Of a DNA stretch of 64,000 nt, positions 57,110 through 63,462 are shown one piece after another. The notes beneath the pieces are model-generated. The model saw nothing but the letters and a program-made list of their open reading frames with translations, ran no database searches and had not been told where the DNA came from. The stretch lies in the NCBI GenBank assembly GCA_032127875.1, contig JAQBHI010000158.1, positions 4,626-68,625 of the forward strand, read 5' to 3'. The translations under genes were made by a program, and so were the position numbers. This stretch comes from Acidobacteriota bacterium (GTDB lineage: Bacteria > Acidobacteriota > Vicinamibacteria > Fen-336). How positions within the stretch are numbered: position 1 is the stretch's first letter; each line of letters starts with the position of its first letter.

Positions 57110-57460
57110 CTACTTCCGGGTGGAAAGCTTCCGGCCCACCGCGGGATTGACGCGGGCCAGTTCCTTCAGAAACACCGTGGCGTCGATGGCGCCGTCGCGC
57201 AGGAACTGGCTCACCTCGCGCGCAAACTCGGCCACGACCTCGCGATCGCTCGAGGCTTCCTTGTGGACGACGGTGCGCTTGTGAAGGCGCCCGTCACCGA
57301 TCAGGCGCTTCACGAGGCTCACGCGCGACGAGCTCCACAGCCGGTAGCCTTTCTTGTTACGCGGGGGTTCCGGAACCTTGCCCGCGTACAGCCAGTTCAG
57401 CAGCGTTTGTTTGCTGACCTTCAGCTCGTGAGCCACCTCGAGGGTGGTCAGGTATTTCAT
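57110..57460 (-). CDS. Excisionase/MerR-type helix-turn-helix DNA-binding protein.
   Basis: The start at MKYLTTLEVAHELKVSKQTLLNWLYAGKVP is an HTH_17-like block. The track ORF is trimmed. Confidence 0.65.
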   Translation of the reverse strand: MKYLTTLEVAHELKVSKQTLLNWLYAGKVPEPPRNKKGYRLWSSSRVSLVKRLIGDGRLHKRTVVHKEASSDREVVAEFAREVSQFLRDGAIDATVFLKELARVNPAVGRKLSTRK

Positions 57461-57616
57461 CGGGAGCCAGGCGGCGATTCTCTCCGATCCCATGAGCGCC
57501 CGTCAACGAACCGGCCAAGCCGTGGCACAATCACGCCCTTGTCCGGCACGGCCGGGAATAGGAGGCGGGCGCTCTCGTTCCTGACGTATTGGGGATGCTG
57601 GCGTACCCAAGAACTG

Positions 57617-58111
57617 TTGAATCGAGAAGCAGGTTTCGAAAAGGAAGCGCTTCCCCAGTGGAGAAGCCTGTTCCGCACCGCGTGTCGCCTGACGCGGAAC
57701 GCGCACGATGCCGAGGATCTCGTGCAGGAAACCATGCTCAGGGCCTATCGTGGCTTCGATCGCTACCAGCCGAACACCAACATCCGGGCCTGGCTGTACA
57801 CGATCCTGCACCGGGTCCATCAAGATGGCCTGCGCCGCAAGCGCCGCTCGCCCGGTTTCGACGAGCTCCCCGAGGATGGTCCCGCTGTGAAGCCGGCGCA
57901 GGCCTTCGTGGCCGCGGGCGGCGAGGATCTCGCCCGGGCGCTCGCCCACCTGGCAGAGCCCTATCGTTCGGCGGTGGTGCTGCGCGACCTCGAGGAGCTG
58001 AGCTATCAGGAGATCGCGCACATTCTCGAGGTGCCCGTGGGCACGGTGATGTCGCGGATCCACCGCGGACGCGCGCAGCTGCGCAAGGCCCTGCTCGGGG
58101 ACCAGCCGTGA
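57617..58111 (+). CDS. ECF-family RNA polymerase sigma factor.
   Basis: Region 2 (DAEDLVQETMLRAYRGFDRY) and region 4 (LSYQEIAHILEVPVGTVMSRIHRGR) are both present. A TTG start is assumed; the true start is uncertain. Confidence 0.8.
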   Translation: MNREAGFEKEALPQWRSLFRTACRLTRNAHDAEDLVQETMLRAYRGFDRYQPNTNIRAWLYTILHRVHQDGLRRKRRSPGFDELPEDGPAVKPAQAFVAAGGEDLARALAHLAEPYRSAVVLRDLEELSYQEIAHILEVPVGTVMSRIHRGRAQLRKALLGDQP

Positions 58112-58842
58112 GCTGCAATCCCGAGCTCGTCACCGGCTACGTGGACGCCGCGCTCGACGACGCGGCCCGCGCCGAGGTCGAGGCGCACCTGGCGGAATGT
58201 GCGGTCTGCCGCGAGCAGGCGGAGGCCGAGAGGCAGCTGCGCGCCGCGCTGCGCACGCTGCCCGCGGCCGAGCCCCGCCGGGGCTTCGAGGCCGATTTAC
58301 GCCGGTCGCTGCTGCGCGCTCGACCCTCGCCCCTGCGCATGTTGCTGCCGATCGCTGCAGTGCTGGTCCTGGCTTTCTTCGGGGGCCTGCGGCTGCCGGG
58401 CGTGCTGGCCTGGGAGCTAGCACGCGATCACAAGAACTGCTTTGGTCAGGAATCCCTGCCCGCCGAGGTCTGGGGTGGCGACGCCGCGGTGATCGTCCGC
58501 TGGTTCGAGGCCCATGGCACGAGCCTGCCTCCGATCCCCGACGGCGCCGGTGGCCTGAGCCTGGTGGGCGGGCGTCGCTGCCCGCTCGTCGATCGATCCG
58601 TCGCGCACCTGTTCTATGCCGCGGGCAAGCGGCGCGTTTCGCTCTTCGTAGTACCCGGCTCCGTGGCGCTGAGCGACCGCTACCAGACCACGGCGCGCCA
58701 CGAGGCGGTTCGCATCTTCCAGGTCGCGGGCCAGCTAGTGGGCGTGGTCGGCGAAAATGAAGACGATGTGCGCGCCTTCGAGCGTAGCTTTCGTTCGACC
58801 AGCGCCTCGACGAGCCGCGAGGCTGGCGAGCCGGAGGTTTGA
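58108..58842 (+). CDS. Anti-sigma factor (zinc-finger type, membrane-spanning).
   Basis: The GTG overlaps the sigma-gene TGA. HLAECAVCREQ is an HxxxCxxC motif. One TM helix (LLPIAAVLVLAFFGG). Confidence 0.7.
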   Translation: MSCNPELVTGYVDAALDDAARAEVEAHLAECAVCREQAEAERQLRAALRTLPAAEPRRGFEADLRRSLLRARPSPLRMLLPIAAVLVLAFFGGLRLPGVLAWELARDHKNCFGQESLPAEVWGGDAAVIVRWFEAHGTSLPPIPDGAGGLSLVGGRRCPLVDRSVAHLFYAAGKRRVSLFVVPGSVALSDRYQTTARHEAVRIFQVAGQLVGVVGENEDDVRAFERSFRSTSASTSREAGEPEV

Positions 58843-59085: not shown

Positions 59086-60528
59086 CTACGCTCGGGGCGT
59101 CTTCAAGCAGCCCGACGCGCACGGGTTACCATCCGCCGGCCGCGACGAGCTACTGCGAGAAGCTCTCGTCAGGTTTGCACTCGGCCTCTCTAGGCCAGAG
59201 TGCGCACATGTACGAGATGCTGGGCCAGAAAGAGCGCGACCAGCTGCACGCACAAGACCGCCGAGGCACTCTGGGAGCGAGCTACACCAGGTCCCAGTCC
59301 TTCGACACACCACGGAGCAGCTTGGCCACGTGGTTTGATCCTCCCAAGCCTCGGGGAGTCTCTCCATGAGCAAGTCGTAAACGCCCACGGGTGGTGGTGG
59401 GGCCTGCACGACCGCGTCTTCGGTCAGGACACCTGCCGGAACGTCTTCGCCGAGCACACTGGCCGGTCCCGCCGTGAGCCACAGGCTTCCTGCCTTCACG
59501 GCCTCACGGAGGGCGCTATCGAGAGCGGCGGCGTCGGCCTTCGGGATGCGGACCGGCTCGTCGTACCCGCCCTTCTTGACCTTCACGATTCGGTCACCGG
59601 AGAAGTAGCTACGAAGGTCCTTCACTCGCAGCTCGGGACCGGCCCAGAGGTCGGGGAGCGCGCCGGGTAGCAGCAGAGCCGGCGCCACATCGGATAGCGT
59701 GGCGGCTTCGGGCAGTACGAACTCGAGCCCGGGGTCCTTCAGGTCGGCCTCATCCGGCTCCTGCCGCCAGAGGGTTCGGACGCTCCGATCGGGCCGGGTC
59801 ACGCGCAGGACAAAGTGGCCCTTCCGGCAGCCCAACACGATCGTGTCGAGGATCGCCGAGCGGCTGAGCATCTTGGGGAGATGCGGGAACTGCGCGAACG
59901 CGCCGACGAGGTCCTTCACGCGCCGCGACGTCTCGCCCTCACGCCACAGGTCGTAAGGACCCCCGGGCAACAACGCGTCGGCACTGACTGCGGTCTCCTG
60001 GATCCGGCTGCGCGCATCCCCCTTGATCGTCGTGAACAGAGGGTAGTCGCCGGCCGTGACCTTGAAGGCCTGCACCTCGTTCTTGTCCGAAACCGTCACC
60101 ACCACGCAGTAAGCTTGCCGGATACCCGCGAACACGCGCTTCCGGGCCGTATCAAGGTTCGCCAGAAGTGTCGCTTCGCGGATCGGATCGAGATCCCCGC
60201 GTTCGAGCTGGCTTCTCACCTCTTCCCAGGCGAGGTAATCGCGGATGGCGCCGCGGGTCACGTCGAGCGCCTCTCGCGAGGGAACAGCCAGGACGACGGC
60301 GTTTCGATAGACGCGCGGCCGATCGGCGCCGGTCGTCTCTTCGAGGAACCGACGAGCCTCGGCGTTGGGCTTGCCCGTCTCCGAGGCCGCCTTCGGCCCA
60401 AGGACGGCGAAGTGGAACTCGCCGTCGTCCTCGATGTTGCGCGGCTTCTCAGGGAGGTTGTGGACTCGGGCTCCCGCCGGGCCTGCTCCCACCGTGAGGC
60501 TCTTGAGCTTCCCGATCTCGTCGAGCAC
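59086..60528 (-). CDS. Uncharacterised 480-aa protein, the first gene of the tRNA-Ala island. A C-terminal frameshift is possible.
   Basis: The GTG start at 60528 has an AT-rich divergent intergenic region upstream. There is no signal peptide and no recognisable motif. The last ~90 aa are low-complexity S/R/C/G. The adjacent frame ends ...HVAKLLRGVSKDWDLV* at 59282, suggesting a frameshift near 59340. Confidence 0.55.
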   Translation of the reverse strand: MLDEIGKLKSLTVGAGPAGARVHNLPEKPRNIEDDGEFHFAVLGPKAASETGKPNAEARRFLEETTGADRPRVYRNAVVLAVPSREALDVTRGAIRDYLAWEEVRSQLERGDLDPIREATLLANLDTARKRVFAGIRQAYCVVVTVSDKNEVQAFKVTAGDYPLFTTIKGDARSRIQETAVSADALLPGGPYDLWREGETSRRVKDLVGAFAQFPHLPKMLSRSAILDTIVLGCRKGHFVLRVTRPDRSVRTLWRQEPDEADLKDPGLEFVLPEAATLSDVAPALLLPGALPDLWAGPELRVKDLRSYFSGDRIVKVKKGGYDEPVRIPKADAAALDSALREAVKAGSLWLTAGPASVLGEDVPAGVLTEDAVVQAPPPPVGVYDLLMERLPEAWEDQTTWPSCSVVCRRTGTWCSSLPECLGGLVRAAGRALSGPASRTCAHSGLERPSANLTRASRSSSSRPADGNPCASGCLKTPRA

Positions 60529-60607
60529 CTTCGCCTCGAGTCGGTCCTACGGGATTTCCTGGACAGGATCATTGTCTGAATATACACTGTTGTCCTGACT
60601 GGGCAAC

Positions 60608-61657
60608 ATGCTATCTAGCGACAACGAACTAGTCCGGCTTGCTGCGGAGGAAATTGGCCGACTCCTGCCGCTAGGCTGGCGAATCGAGGGGAGCGCCATA
60701 GAGCCGCGAAATTCCGCCGTTGACGGACGAGCCTTCATCGTCGCCCCCGACGGCCGACGCGCCATCGTGCTTATCGAAGCGAAACGCAGTCTCGACCCGC
60801 GCGGAGCGAGCGAACTGGCGAGGCGCCTCGGGATAGAACTGCCTGGCGAGGCCGTCATCGTGGTGTCGCCTTACCTGGCTGCCAGCGTTCGTGATCGGCT
60901 CAAAGCGTCCGGCCTCGGCTACGTCGACTTAACCGGCAATGCGCGCCTGACACTCAGCAGCCCTGGCTTACATCTCGAAACCACCGGGGCCGATTCCGAC
61001 CCCAACCCTTCCCTGCGCCCGACCCGTTCCCTACGTGGACCCAAGGCCGGCAGAGTTGTTCGGGTCCTGTGTGACTCGCGGGAGCCGGGCGGCGTCAGAG
61101 ATCTCGCCGCCAAGACTGGCCTTGATCCGGGCTATGTGTCCAGGATCCTCGCGTTGCTCGATCGGGAGGATCTCGTCGAGCGAGACCCGCGAGGTCGCAT
61201 CCTCAAGGTCGAGTGGGAACGGCTCCTTCGGCGCTGGGCGCAAGACGTGCCGTTCGAGAACCGCGGCCAGGCATCCTCATACTTGGAACCCCGCGGCTTG
61301 CCGGCTCTGCTCGAACGACTCCCGCAGAGCCGACTGCGCTACGTCATTACGGGTTCACTCGCCGCCTCCAGGCTGGCGCCAATTGCACCGCCGCGACTGG
61401 CCACCCTTTGCGTGGAGAGCCTCGATCGCGCTGCCGAGGAATGGAGCCTTCGCCCGGCCGAGGCCGGTGGCAACGTCGTGCTCGTCCTGCCGACCGACGA
61501 CTGGGTCTTCGCGGGTGCCGGGGAGGTTGCGGCAATCAAGTATGCCGCTCCGAGTCAGGTGGCGGCCGATCTGCTGACGAGCCCAGGGCGCGGGCCGGCC
61601 GAGGCTGAGGAACTATTCCGCTGGATGACGGCGAACGAGGAGAAGTGGCGTGGATGA
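60608..61657 (+). CDS. AbiEi-like putative antitoxin/regulator: an N-terminal PD-(D/E)xK-like region and a central winged HTH.
   Basis: …VAPDGRRAIVLIEAKRSLD reads as a D..E.K nuclease-like motif. The wHTH is GVRDLAAKTGLDPGYVSRILALLDREDLVERD. Its 3' end overlaps the downstream nucleotidyltransferase gene by 8 nt. Confidence 0.5.
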   Translation: MLSSDNELVRLAAEEIGRLLPLGWRIEGSAIEPRNSAVDGRAFIVAPDGRRAIVLIEAKRSLDPRGASELARRLGIELPGEAVIVVSPYLAASVRDRLKASGLGYVDLTGNARLTLSSPGLHLETTGADSDPNPSLRPTRSLRGPKAGRVVRVLCDSREPGGVRDLAAKTGLDPGYVSRILALLDREDLVERDPRGRILKVEWERLLRRWAQDVPFENRGQASSYLEPRGLPALLERLPQSRLRYVITGSLAASRLAPIAPPRLATLCVESLDRAAEEWSLRPAEAGGNVVLVLPTDDWVFAGAGEVAAIKYAAPSQVAADLLTSPGRGPAEAEELFRWMTANEEKWRG

Positions 61658-62477
61658 ACTTTACGTTCTGGCCAGGAGCGTCCTGCTCGATGCCCTGGAA
61701 GCCTTGGGTCCGCACCGGCAGGCATGCGTGCTTGTCGGAGCCCAGGCTATCTATCTGAGAGTCGGCGAAGCGGACCTCGCCGTAGCGCCATTCACGACGG
61801 ACGGGGATCTCGTCATTGATCCGCGCCGTCTTTCAGACGCGCCGCCCATCGAAAGGGGTCTCCTGGCAGCGGGGTTCGAACTCAGGGGTGGAGACAGCGT
61901 AGGGATTTGGGTGACACGACGGGAGACACACAGCCACGCCGACGTCGAGGTCGCGGTCGACATGCTGGTGCCCGAAGCCGTCAGTCCGGGATCTGGGCGA
62001 AGGGCAGCCAAACTCCAAGGCCATGAGCCACGTGCCGCGAGAATCGCGCGCGGATTGGAGGCGGTCCTTTTCGACGCTGACTTGATGCGGGTAGCTGCCC
62101 TCAGCGATTCGGACGCGCGTGGCTTTGATGTCAGCGTGGCCGGCCCTGCAGCCCTTCTGGTCTCGAAGCTCCACAAGATCGCCGACCGAGCCGGCTCTCC
62201 GCGCGCCAAGGACAAGGACGCCTACGACGTGTTGCGCCTTCTTCGCGGCACGACTGCCGCTGAGATGGCGACCCGAGTTCGCCGGTTTCGCGCTGAGCCG
62301 CTCAGCAAGGCAGTGACAGTCGAAGCGCTGGGTCTTCTGGGCTCTTTCTTCGGACGGGCCGACGGAGTCGGGTCCCAGATGGCCGTCCGAGCCGCGCGCG
62401 GGTTGGCCGACGCGCAGGAAATTGCGGTGTCCTGCGTGGCTCTCGCCGAGGAGATGCTTGACGCGCTTCGTGACTGA
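61650..62477 (+). CDS. AbiEii/DUF1814-family nucleotidyltransferase (putative type IV TA / abortive-infection toxin).
   Basis: The nucleotidyltransferase-fold motif is VGAQAIYLRVGEADLAVAPFTTDGDLVID (G[GS] then DxD). The C-terminal block ...LLVSKLHKIADRAGSPRAKDKDAYDVLRLL matches the family. Confidence 0.65.
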   Translation: MDELYVLARSVLLDALEALGPHRQACVLVGAQAIYLRVGEADLAVAPFTTDGDLVIDPRRLSDAPPIERGLLAAGFELRGGDSVGIWVTRRETHSHADVEVAVDMLVPEAVSPGSGRRAAKLQGHEPRAARIARGLEAVLFDADLMRVAALSDSDARGFDVSVAGPAALLVSKLHKIADRAGSPRAKDKDAYDVLRLLRGTTAAEMATRVRRFRAEPLSKAVTVEALGLLGSFFGRADGVGSQMAVRAARGLADAQEIAVSCVALAEEMLDALRD

Positions 62478-62754
62478 TCTTCCTACCACGCTATGCCTGT
62501 CGCGGCGCCCGACAGCCTTAGCCGGCGCTTCACCGAGGCCGTCTTGGGGACGGGCTCAAGGGCGTCCGCGTCCCGAATGAATCCTCCGGAAGCGGCAGCG
62601 TGACGGACCAGGCCTTGCGCGTCTCCCGGCGCGCCCGGCCCTTCTGGAGGTGTTTACCGCCGTTCGTCAGCCATGCAAGAGCCTGCTCCGGCTTGGCGGC
62701 CGATCGGCTGCTGCTGAAGATGGTCCGTTGGCCACGGCACAGCCCGGGGCCCAA

Positions 62755-62810
62755 GAGAATGGCATTCACGGGATCACGGGTTCATCCCGTCAGCCCTCGG
62801 TGGCTCCAGC
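62755..62810 (+). repeat. Degenerate direct repeat of the tRNA-Ala 3' half (putative decayed att site).
   Basis: GAATGGCATTCACG is identical to tRNA positions about 58914-58927. It is followed by GGATCACGGGTTCATCCCGTCAGC, compared with the tRNA's AGGTCAGGGGTTCGATCCCCCTCAGC. Confidence 0.6.
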
Positions 62811-62851: not shown

Positions 62852-62883
62852 TTGACCCCGGTGGTATGTCGGGGTCATACTAT
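62852..62883 (+). promoter_or_regulatory. Promoter with an overlapping inverted-repeat operator upstream of mazE.
   Basis: TTGACC (62852-62857), a spacer, then CATACT/TACTAT as the -10. A perfect 7-bp inverted repeat GACCCCG…CGGGGTC spans the spacer. The ATG follows about 6 nt after the -10 region. Confidence 0.35.
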
Positions 62884-62887
62884 TTTC

Positions 62888-63124
62888 ATGAAGGTGGCAG
62901 TTTCCATACCCGATCCGATCTTTCGTGAAGCGGAGCGGATCTCCCGCCGCATCCGGGTGCCTCGCAGCCAGTTCTACGCCCATGCCCTCGAGGCCTACGT
63001 GCGCGAGCGATCTGGCGAAGACGTCACGGAGCAGCTCAACGAGGTCTACGCAAGGAGCTCGGCGAAACTCGATCCCGCCACTGAAGCGCTCTCACTCGAG
63101 ATCCTGAGGCGGGAGAAGTGGTAG
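62888..63124 (+). CDS. mazE: MazE/PemI-like antitoxin.
   Basis: 78 aa. MKVAVSIPDPIFREAERISRRIRVPRSQFYAHALEAYV has the SpoVT/AbrB-like antitoxin pattern. It overlaps the mazF start by 7 nt. The track ORF is trimmed. Confidence 0.65.
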   Translation: MKVAVSIPDPIFREAERISRRIRVPRSQFYAHALEAYVRERSGEDVTEQLNEVYARSSAKLDPATEALSLEILRREKW

Positions 63125-63462
63125 CCCGGCGCGGCGAGATCTGGTGGACGGATTTCGGGCAGCCATTTGGATCGGAGCCGGCCTACCGCCGGCCGGCGCT
63201 GCTTATTCAGGCGGACGCGTTCAATCGGAGCTCGATTGCGACGGTTCTCCTGATCCCGCTCACGAGAACCGTCGCCCTGGCCTCAGCGCCGGGCAACGTC
63301 TTGTGCCGTCCCCGCGATACCGGGCTGCCGAAGCCGTCCGTGGTGAACGTCTCACAACTCACCGTCGCGGACCGGCGGAGGCTCATCGAGAAGGCGGGAG
63401 CTTTGCCGGGACGACTCCTGAAACAAGTGGAAGACGGCCTGCGACTCGTGCTCGAGCTCTGA
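63118..63462 (+). CDS. mazF: MazF/PemK-family endoribonuclease toxin.
   Basis: GEIWWTDFGQPFGSEPAYRRPALLIQ...IATVLLIPLT...APGNV...VNVSQLTVADRRRL is the canonical PemK/MazF sequence. 114 aa. Confidence 0.85.
   Translation: MVARRGEIWWTDFGQPFGSEPAYRRPALLIQADAFNRSSIATVLLIPLTRTVALASAPGNVLCRPRDTGLPKPSVVNVSQLTVADRRRLIEKAGALPGRLLKQVEDGLRLVLEL

Follow-up and report, generated by a model that had tools for sequence, protein, structure and literature searches.

What kind of system do two overlapping genes form at positions 60,608 to 62,477 of a 64,000-nucleotide (nt) stretch of DNA from an Acidobacteriota bacterium (contig JAQBHI010000158.1 of assembly GCA_032127875.1; the whole stretch is called the window here), and does the nuclease-like start of the first protein set that system apart? 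An earlier note, made from the sequence alone, had seen in these genes (gene 1 and gene 2 below) an AbiEi/AbiEii-like two-gene module, and this holds: gene 1 and gene 2 are an AbiEi/AbiEii-like bicistronic module, with the Pfam families PF12281, PF08843, and PF09952 matched among their relatives and with gene 1 aligned by hhalign to an annotated AbiEi antitoxin. We think it probable that the whole cassette (∼60540 to 62495) is a mobile, self-contained nucleotidyltransferase toxin-antitoxin (TA) system of the AbiE/MenAT class, belonging to the COG4861 (AbiEi_2) branch, autoregulated and carrying a tRNA-modifying toxin.

The two genes and their protein families

High guanine-plus-cytosine (GC) content yields many long spurious open reading frames (ORFs) on both strands, and the neighboring gene at 59086 to 60528 is a truncated remnant, both of which speak for reading the pair as chance ORFs or decayed pseudogenes in high-GC DNA. 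The conservation data rule this artifact out, and we give it practically no chance of being right: the homologous clusters number more than 1,474 for gene 1 and more than 2,116 for gene 2, full-length homologues at 50 to 93% identity run into the thousands, and homologues of both genes co-occur on the same contigs (e.g., IT381_32770/32775 and HY744_11660/11665), so these are real genes and not high-GC noise; the catalytic residues of gene 2 are invariant, the structure predictions are confident, and the promoter and operator are conserved. Both ORFs are as first described (Table 1) and overlap by 8 nt (GTGGATGA), the gene-1 frame at the junction reading ...TGG CGT GGA TGA and the gene-2 frame GTG GAT GAA. 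The GTG start of gene 2 is supported by the N-terminus (M/V)DELYV that its homologues share, and gene 2 is translationally coupled to gene 1 through the overlap.

Gene 2 is, judged by its sequence, a nucleotidyltransferase of the DUF1814 superfamily with an intact active site. Residues in four motifs define the DUF1814 toxins (Dy et al. 2014; PMC3985639), and we took these motifs as hG[GS] (I), DhD (II), a Lys-containing motif (III), and +DxxD (IV). A scan of species genomes, with one genome per species, gave 514 loci with a gene-2 relative, the best 80 of which were examined for neighbors; in 80 of 80 gene-2 relatives from species genomes, G30-A31, T49-T50-D51-G52-D53, D104, K173/K176, and the block K189-D190-A-Y-D193 are invariant. 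Among these, G30, D51xD53, and D104 are assigned as catalytic, K173/K176 as motif III, and K189-D-x-x-D193 as motif IV. This bears out the C-terminal KDxYD block that the earlier note had described and the DxD part of its G[GS]-x(n)-DxD core; the other part needs amending, as motif I reads GA (G30-A31) and not G[GS]. PF12281 (NTP_transf_8) is matched by 43 of 44 gene-2 relatives (E <= 0.01) and PF08843 (AbiEii) by 10 of 44, several relatives carry the NCBI name "GSU2403 family nucleotidyltransferase fold protein," and gene 2 lies nearer PF12281 than PF08843. Two residues before D51 stands T49, itself invariant in the 80 relatives, and the annotated AbiEii/AbiGii toxin of an Agrobacterium plasmid also has Thr at the equivalent position. 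The phospho-acceptor of MenT1, T39, lies at the same distance from D41xD43 (PMC11375011), and MenT3 S78 and AbiEii T65 are described as structurally equivalent to it (PMC11375011; bioRxiv 10.64898/2026.01.19.700257); by this analogy, T49 is a candidate phospho-acceptor of gene 2.

We place gene 1 in the COG4861 class, which corresponds to PF09952 (PMC7251935), because PF09952 is matched by 20 of 41 gene-1 relatives (best E 4.7e-6) and because the gene-1 profile aligns with PF09952-positive proteins; against an Agrobacterium antitoxin annotated as AbiEi, the alignment extends from residue 8 to 336 at an hhalign probability of 98.6%. The central winged helix-turn-helix (wHTH) claimed for gene 1 is confirmed by a match to HTH_IclR above the Pfam threshold (residues 146 to 194; E 1.2e-7; 31.8 bits against a cutoff of 22), and its recognition helix starts at about D173-P-G-Y-V-S-R179.

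For the C-terminal part of gene 1, the evidence comes mainly from an AlphaFold2 model of the full-length protein, built on a 41-sequence alignment (predicted local distance difference test [pLDDT], 91.9; predicted template modeling score [pTM], 0.81). Foldseek matched this model to the minimal nucleotidyltransferases TM1012 (probability 0.99), MenT1, LnuA (4FO1), and ANT(2''), matches that vanish when the N-terminal domain alone is the query. A conserved T248-G249-S250 stands at the G[GS] position of nucleotidyltransferases, and the positions of the two catalytic Asp are taken by A265 and L267, aliphatic throughout the family, leaving no DxD carboxylates. The domain looks like a dead nucleotidyltransferase, as judged from the predicted fold, its topology, and the conserved T-G-S only, and the fold matches agree with the nucleotidyltransferase-like fold published for the C-terminal domain of classical AbiEi (PMC7319586). 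Compared directly with the gene-2 enzyme by hhalign, the domain gave no significant sequence homology (E 0.65). A short string, V-A-x-D-L-L-(x)-S-P-G-(x)-G-R, occurs in both proteins (gene 1, amino acids [aa] 314 to 330, SQVAADLLTSPGRGP; gene 2, aa 101 to 118, VAVDMLVPEAVSPGSGRR); its gene-1 copy is predicted to be helical, and with the profile comparison at that E value the resemblance may be a coincidence.

The N-terminal domain of gene 1

Modeled alone with AlphaFold2, the N-terminal domain of gene 1 (pLDDT 89.6) is predicted to run helix, three strands, helix, strand, helix, and then three strands, with an alpha-beta-beta-beta-alpha-beta core. Foldseek matched it in the PDB to EndoMS/NucS (E 3.4e-5, probability 1.0) and MspJI (TMq 0.52; root mean square deviation, 3.5 to 3.9), and further to EcoT38I, BbvCI, BspD6I, and Can2; resemblance extends to viral proteins named restriction endonuclease or Mrr. 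TM-scores against the nucleases are modest (0.44 to 0.52) at sequence identities of 15 to 27%, no Pfam family covers the region in gene 1 or the relatives scanned, and single relatives give faint Pfam matches to NA-iREase1 and NucS_C. The structure prediction that the earlier note had proposed thus returned a PD-(D/E)xK-like topology with nuclease matches, and we predict with high confidence that the N-terminus of gene 1 adopts the PD-(D/E)xK fold. In the predicted secondary structure, D39 lies just before strand 2, opposite E57-A-K59 at the end of strand 3, and D48 (of "PDG") sits in the beta2-beta3 hairpin turn; on this basis we assign D39/E57/K59, intact in gene 1, as the putative triad. 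The D…E-A-K arrangement recognized in the sequence therefore stands as to the fold and is corrected as to its Asp, which is D39 rather than D48. EndoMS/NucS and MspJI, the best structural matches, share the core and have Asp and Glu-x-Lys at the expected places; they differ in that the triad is not conserved in the gene-1 family and in that the fusion partners of the domain are here a wHTH and an AbiEi_2 domain instead of a domain for DNA repair or for reading modifications.

An intact triad invites the proposal that the N-terminal domain is an active nuclease and that gene 1, beyond any antitoxin function, serves as an effector or DNA sensor; it might, for example, cut or recognize invading DNA with the nucleotidyltransferase as partner or signal generator. 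D39/E57/K59 are all present in gene 1, in distant Agrobacterium and Rhodococcus homologues, and in 80 of 148 cluster representatives; the fold matches are to real nucleases (NucS, MspJI, and Can2); and restriction and defense genes neighbor the cassette at other loci. Yet the triad, kept in 29 to 55% of gene-1 relatives, is gone in 45 to 70% of relatives in which the protein is otherwise retained along with its partner gene. Across 77 species loci it reads DEK in 22 and DER in 13 and is otherwise degenerate, Lys is replaced by Arg in 43 of 81 sequences from species loci, and the best-conserved residues of the domain (W24, D107, G110, N111, and P119, each above 97%) all lie outside it. The modest TM-scores point the same way, as does the nearest Pfam hint, which in one relative is to NA-iREase1, an "inactive restriction endonuclease" family. 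With the triad present in a minority to half of the relatives, nuclease activity is therefore not the core function of the family, and catalysis by the N-terminal domain appears from these comparisons to be dispensable for it; the DEK counts likewise weaken the nuclease-like effector that had been suggested. We regard an effector or sensor role for gene 1 as quite unlikely, and the narrower proposal that the domain is a working nuclease or nucleic-acid sensor in those COG4861-type antitoxins that keep the triad is likewise improbable. If it were true, the antitoxin would itself sense or cleave invading DNA and link this to the release of the toxin, making it a two-armed defense protein instead of a simple repressor-antitoxin.

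Within its branch, the domain is no oddity. Among the best 80 loci, each of the 77 with upstream sequence has a complete three-domain gene-1 homologue ahead of its toxin homologue. Plasmid-borne homologues from Agrobacterium, Bosea, Mesorhizobium, and Variovorax (27 to 29% identity) carry the annotation "type IV toxin-antitoxin system AbiEi family antitoxin"; at the loci that we inspected, those of Agrobacterium and Bosea, an overlapping "AbiEii/AbiGii toxin family" gene lies downstream, and the gene-1 homologues there pass the PF09952 threshold (34.2 bits given for PF09952-positive proteins). A hidden Markov model of the N-terminal domain alone matches PF09952-positive plasmid proteins at 27 to 37% identity (Agrobacterium, E 4.5e-14; Bosea, E 2.4e-13; Rhodococcus, E 2.7e-25), and a profile search of 1.84 billion representatives returned 1,531 clusters at 50% identity; among the 150 matches listed, the domain stands at or near the N-terminus, in proteins of which about half have 300 to 400 aa and the rest are shorter. 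The nuclease-fold N-terminal domain is a constant feature of the COG4861/AbiEi_2 branch and is absent from classical COG5340 AbiEi. The earlier note was right to call it nonstandard with respect to classical AbiEi only, and the variant system with an added domain that it proposed gives way to a three-domain layout that is the norm, at the 77 loci as in the annotated plasmid antitoxins. The open-access literature searched presents the COG4861 protein simply as a large regulator with a wHTH and makes no mention of a nuclease-fold domain.

A predicted operator and its co-variation with the recognition helix

Gene 1 is preceded by a sigma-70-like promoter (−35 TGGACA at 60560 to 60565, a spacer of 17, and −10 TACACT at 60583 to 60588) that ends about 20 nt before the ATG; in the promoter scan, this region yielded 3 sites where 0.2 would be expected. 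The predicted operator consists of half-sites A (ATTGT, 60571 to 60575), B (GTTGT, 60589 to 60593), C (GCAAC, 60603 to 60607, abutting the ATG), and D (ACAAC, 60621 to 60625, in codons D5-N6), separated by gaps of N13, N9, and N13, and it covers the −10 box, the 5′ leader, the start codon, and codons 5 and 6. With arms of 5 nt that are imperfect in the window, it was missed by a generic inverted-repeat search and was found through k-mer enrichment across loci: in counts over the 130 nt upstream of gene 1, GCAACA occurs in 43 of 69 loci against about 4 expected. Printed in register, the loci show half-site, N13, half-site, N9, inverted half-site, N13, inverted half-site. When this layout was scored blindly, with at least 13 of 15 positions required, it appeared in 40 of 73 related loci and in 0 of 1,460 shuffles, with 38 loci agreeing in its offset (−19). 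The 64-kb window contains a single match to the pattern, and none of 100 shuffles has one.

The half-sites vary by clade (GTTGC, GTTCC, or TTGCC) along with the residues at the start of the recognition helix, a co-variation that is inflated by sequence relatedness. G175, Y176, S178, and R179 are near-invariant in the GTTGC clade and switch in the other operator clades (e.g., G-Y to [GAS]-[ST]), and the GTTCC and TTGCC clades have the same layout except that one gap differs in length by one nucleotide. Even with that inflation, a fixed geometry combined with changed bases and changed helix residues is the signature of a cognate repressor-operator pair, and the conservation of the layout across phyla together with this co-variation argues strongly that gene 1 would repress its own operon. 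The operator also accounts for a feature of the protein. Residue 6 (60623 to 60625) is Asn in this clade and appears invariant because its codon belongs to half-site D, formed by codons 5 and 6 (GAC AAC or GGC AAC); where the operator is of the GTTCC type, these codons are GGA ACA, and residue 6 is Thr in most cases. The arrangement resembles the published operator of Rv2827c, with four repeats and 13-bp gaps (PMC7319586).

At loci L007, L008, L013, L014, L018 to L020, L027, and L029 (Myxococcota), a second complete array of GTTGC/GCAAC lies about 65 nt upstream of the first, beyond the −35 region, for a total of eight half-sites. This suggests higher-order repressor assemblies in the Myxococcota clade.

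The cassette in its genomic setting and among its relatives

The closest relative of the cassette lies in an Acidobacteriota metagenome-assembled genome (L001) and has a gene-2 homologue of 90% identity. Similarity to it begins at about 60540, stops at about 62495, and is absent further upstream; these limits therefore define a mobile unit of promoter-operator and both genes. Across many phyla, the two genes stay strictly linked: the loci are spread over about 500 species genomes of more than ten phyla, in a patchy distribution, and in the best 80 loci no third gene is conserved, the commonest flanking family being found at only 7 of them. By eye, the alignment with L001 also shows a tRNA-like gene after the cassette (∼2300 to 2380 of that locus), on the opposite strand and different from the tRNA of the window.

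Table 1. Coordinates of the cassette and of neighboring features in the window
Feature	Position	Strand	Size and start	Basis or assignment
Cassette left edge and promoter region	60540..60607	+		Promoter scan; start of similarity to L001
Predicted operator, four 5-nt half-sites, two-fold symmetric	60571..60625	+		Cross-locus layout and shuffles
Gene 1	60608..61657	+	349 aa, ATG	Six-frame ORF list; three-domain COG4861/AbiEi_2-type putative antitoxin and autorepressor
Gene-1 N-terminal domain	60608..60997	+	aa 1-130	Predicted PD-(D/E)xK (restriction-endonuclease-like) fold; predicted structure, Foldseek
Gene-1 wHTH	61034..61207	+	aa ∼143-200	HTH_IclR Pfam match
Gene-1 C-terminal AbiEi_2 domain	61208..61654	+	aa 201-349	PF09952 in relatives, Foldseek; presumed antitoxicity domain
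Gene 2	61650..62477	+	275 aa, GTG	Six-frame ORF list; DUF1814-superfamily nucleotidyltransferase, PF12281/"GSU2403" clade, putative toxin
tRNA-Ala(GGC), left flank of ∼3.8-kb segment	58884..58959	+		ARAGORN; Rfam tRNA, 63.3 bits
5′-truncated HmaC-like (AAA+ ATPase) remnant	59086..60528	-	480 aa	PADLOC HmaC, E 3.3e-10
Decayed partial tRNA-Ala copy (anticodon arm to T arm), right flank	62737..62790	+		Direct repeat
Small ribbon-helix-helix (RHH)-like ORF	62888..63124	+		Weak RHH_3, E 0.059
PemK/MazF toxin	63118..63462	+		E 2.7e-24; overlapped by RHH-like ORF

In the window, the cassette is a routine accessory module in a small, eroded, tRNA-linked island (Table 1). The tRNA-Ala copies on its two sides form a direct repeat of 47 nt that is 74% identical and includes an exactly matching core of 14 nt (GAATGGCATTCACG), the right-hand copy not being recognized as a tRNA by Rfam; they are probably the relic of an old tRNA-targeted integration, of which no integrase is left. 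From the tRNA-like gene that also follows the cassette at L001, we suggest that tRNA neighborhoods are recurrent landing sites. The HmaC-like ORF is a decayed defense-type gene that matches positions 545 to 771 of 941 of HmaC only, with the N-terminal ATPase half missing and the truncation point about 15 nt from the left edge of the cassette; toward its end, some 70 residues seem to be out of frame. The RHH-like ORF and MazF, directly after the tRNA remnant, form a second TA pair, which is preceded by a promoter-like site and a hairpin at 62852 to 62881. Upstream of the tRNA, the translations at 57263 to 58842 (+) resemble, by eye, an extracytoplasmic function (ECF)-type sigma factor and, after it, an anti-sigma factor that has a Cys/His motif like that of a zinc finger.

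Whether the cassette is a TA system at all can be judged against this background. The pair could instead be a regulator with a nontoxic nucleotidyltransferase acting on a physiological substrate, gene 1 being only a transcription factor or enzyme partner, and the case for this comes from the one COG4861-paired enzyme that has been tested. This is MenT2 of the Mycobacterium tuberculosis COG4861-DUF1814 pair MenA2-MenT2 (Rv0837c-Rv0836c; PMC7450476, PMC3968373), which was nontoxic in M. smegmatis or Escherichia coli (PMC7450476), which yielded no phosphopeptide (PMC11375011), and whose deletion gives an infection defect (PMC7450476; PMC11375011). It is joined by the absence of any defense-model match, neither protein being recognized by the PADLOC defense models, NCBIfam, or PHROGs, and by the absence of the module from the viral contigs searched.

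Other results, too, weigh against our assignment. The profile searches that had been proposed for the two genes gave a divided answer: relatives match, as described above, and the proteins of the window themselves fall short, gene 1 reaching 13.8 bits against a cutoff of 21 for AbiEi_2 (PF09952; residues 203 to 329; E 0.073) with no match to AbiEi_1, AbiEi_3, or AbiEi_4, and gene 2 reaching 21.1 bits against 22.5 for PF08843 and 23.2 bits against 26.3 for PF12281. Sequence-profile searches of the PDB with the gene-1 and gene-2 family profiles found no significant solved structure for either. Toxicity, tRNA target, and phosphorylation are extrapolated from COG5340-paired toxins and MenT1, and the role of the N-terminal domain as an oligomerization or scaffold module is a conjecture.

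Against a housekeeping role stand the unrelated context of the cassette in nearly every genome, its patchiness across phyla, its occurrence on plasmids beside defense genes, and, in the window, its place in a tRNA-linked segment beside a decayed defense ATPase and a MazEF pair, to which the sequences add a predicted tight autoregulation and translational coupling. Mobility, defense neighbors, autoregulation, and coupling are hallmarks of addiction or defense modules and not of housekeeping enzymes, and we therefore consider a nontoxic enzyme with its regulator unlikely, and an AbiE/MenAT-class TA system the better account of the cassette.

As such a system, the cassette would work as follows. 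Gene 1, probably in the form of a dimer of dimers, would bind 60571 to 60625 with its winged helix and repress the operon, and the N-terminal domain might, as we conjecture, be an oligomerization scaffold that places four winged helices on the four half-sites. The C-terminal domain of gene 1 would neutralize the gene-2 enzyme by direct binding and would possibly provoke auto-phosphorylation of Thr49, two residues before D51xD53. When freed, for instance by phage infection or by loss of the cassette, gene 2 would add nucleotides to tRNA acceptor ends and halt translation.

The branch to which the cassette belongs is already known or predicted, the COG4861-DUF1814 pairing having been proposed as AbiE-like in 2014 (PMC3985639; PMC3968373), and nothing in our results overturns expectation. 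With MenA2-MenT2 the cassette has in common a large COG4861/AbiEi_2-type upstream protein followed by a DUF1814-type nucleotidyltransferase, a placement made through the PF09952 class link and the published description and not by sequence alignment. MenA2 is described as "much larger" than its cognate toxin (PMC7450476), compared with 349 and 275 aa here, and the lack of toxicity of MenT2 leaves the COG4861 class without a demonstrated mechanism. The Agrobacterium and Bosea plasmid pairs (PF09952 plus PF08843) share the gene order and the overlap and are of similar size, with 358 and 289 aa, and their three-domain antitoxin aligns with gene 1 over the span given above, D...ExK and Y-x-D-L-x-G-N included. 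Their toxin is co-linear with gene 2 through all motifs, a weak match at the profile level (hhalign E 0.015 against the annotated Agrobacterium toxin); further differences are an antitoxin identity of about 27% and the position of gene 2 nearer PF12281.

Classical AbiE (AbiEi-AbiEii of Streptococcus agalactiae) and MenA3/A4-MenT3/T4 (COG5340-COG2253) are likewise bicistronic, with a wHTH autorepressor-antitoxin followed by a DUF1814 toxin; their antitoxins have a nucleotidyltransferase-like C-terminal fold, their promoters carry repeat operators, four with 13-bp gaps in Rv2827c (PMC3985639, PMC7319586), and their toxins have Ser or Thr two residues before the catalytic DxD (PMC11375011). The antitoxins themselves differ: COG5340 proteins are two-domain proteins that begin with the wHTH (at 143 to 200 in gene 1) and lack a nuclease-fold domain, and COG5340 and COG4861 share no sequence similarity. 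AbiEi (6Y8Q) and Rv2827c (1ZEL) were not among the top 50 Foldseek matches of gene 1. A COG5340-type AbiEi, such as S. agalactiae AbiEi, Rv2827c, or MenA3, is excluded for gene 1 by its three domains and by the missing AbiEi_1, AbiEi_3, and AbiEi_4 matches.

In the toxin family that poisons tRNAs and is switched off by induced auto-phosphorylation, no branch is less well understood than the COG4861-DUF1814 pairs, and their only tested example, MenA2-MenT2, showed no toxicity on expression. The anatomy of the branch is now concrete, with an N-terminal domain of predicted nuclease fold and mosaic active site, a winged helix, and a C-terminal domain that looks like a dead nucleotidyltransferase, in cassettes that standard defense-finding models miss although they occur in about 500 species genomes of more than ten phyla. 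Two predictions follow that can be tested: an operator that co-varies with the recognition helix, and Thr49 as candidate phospho-acceptor.

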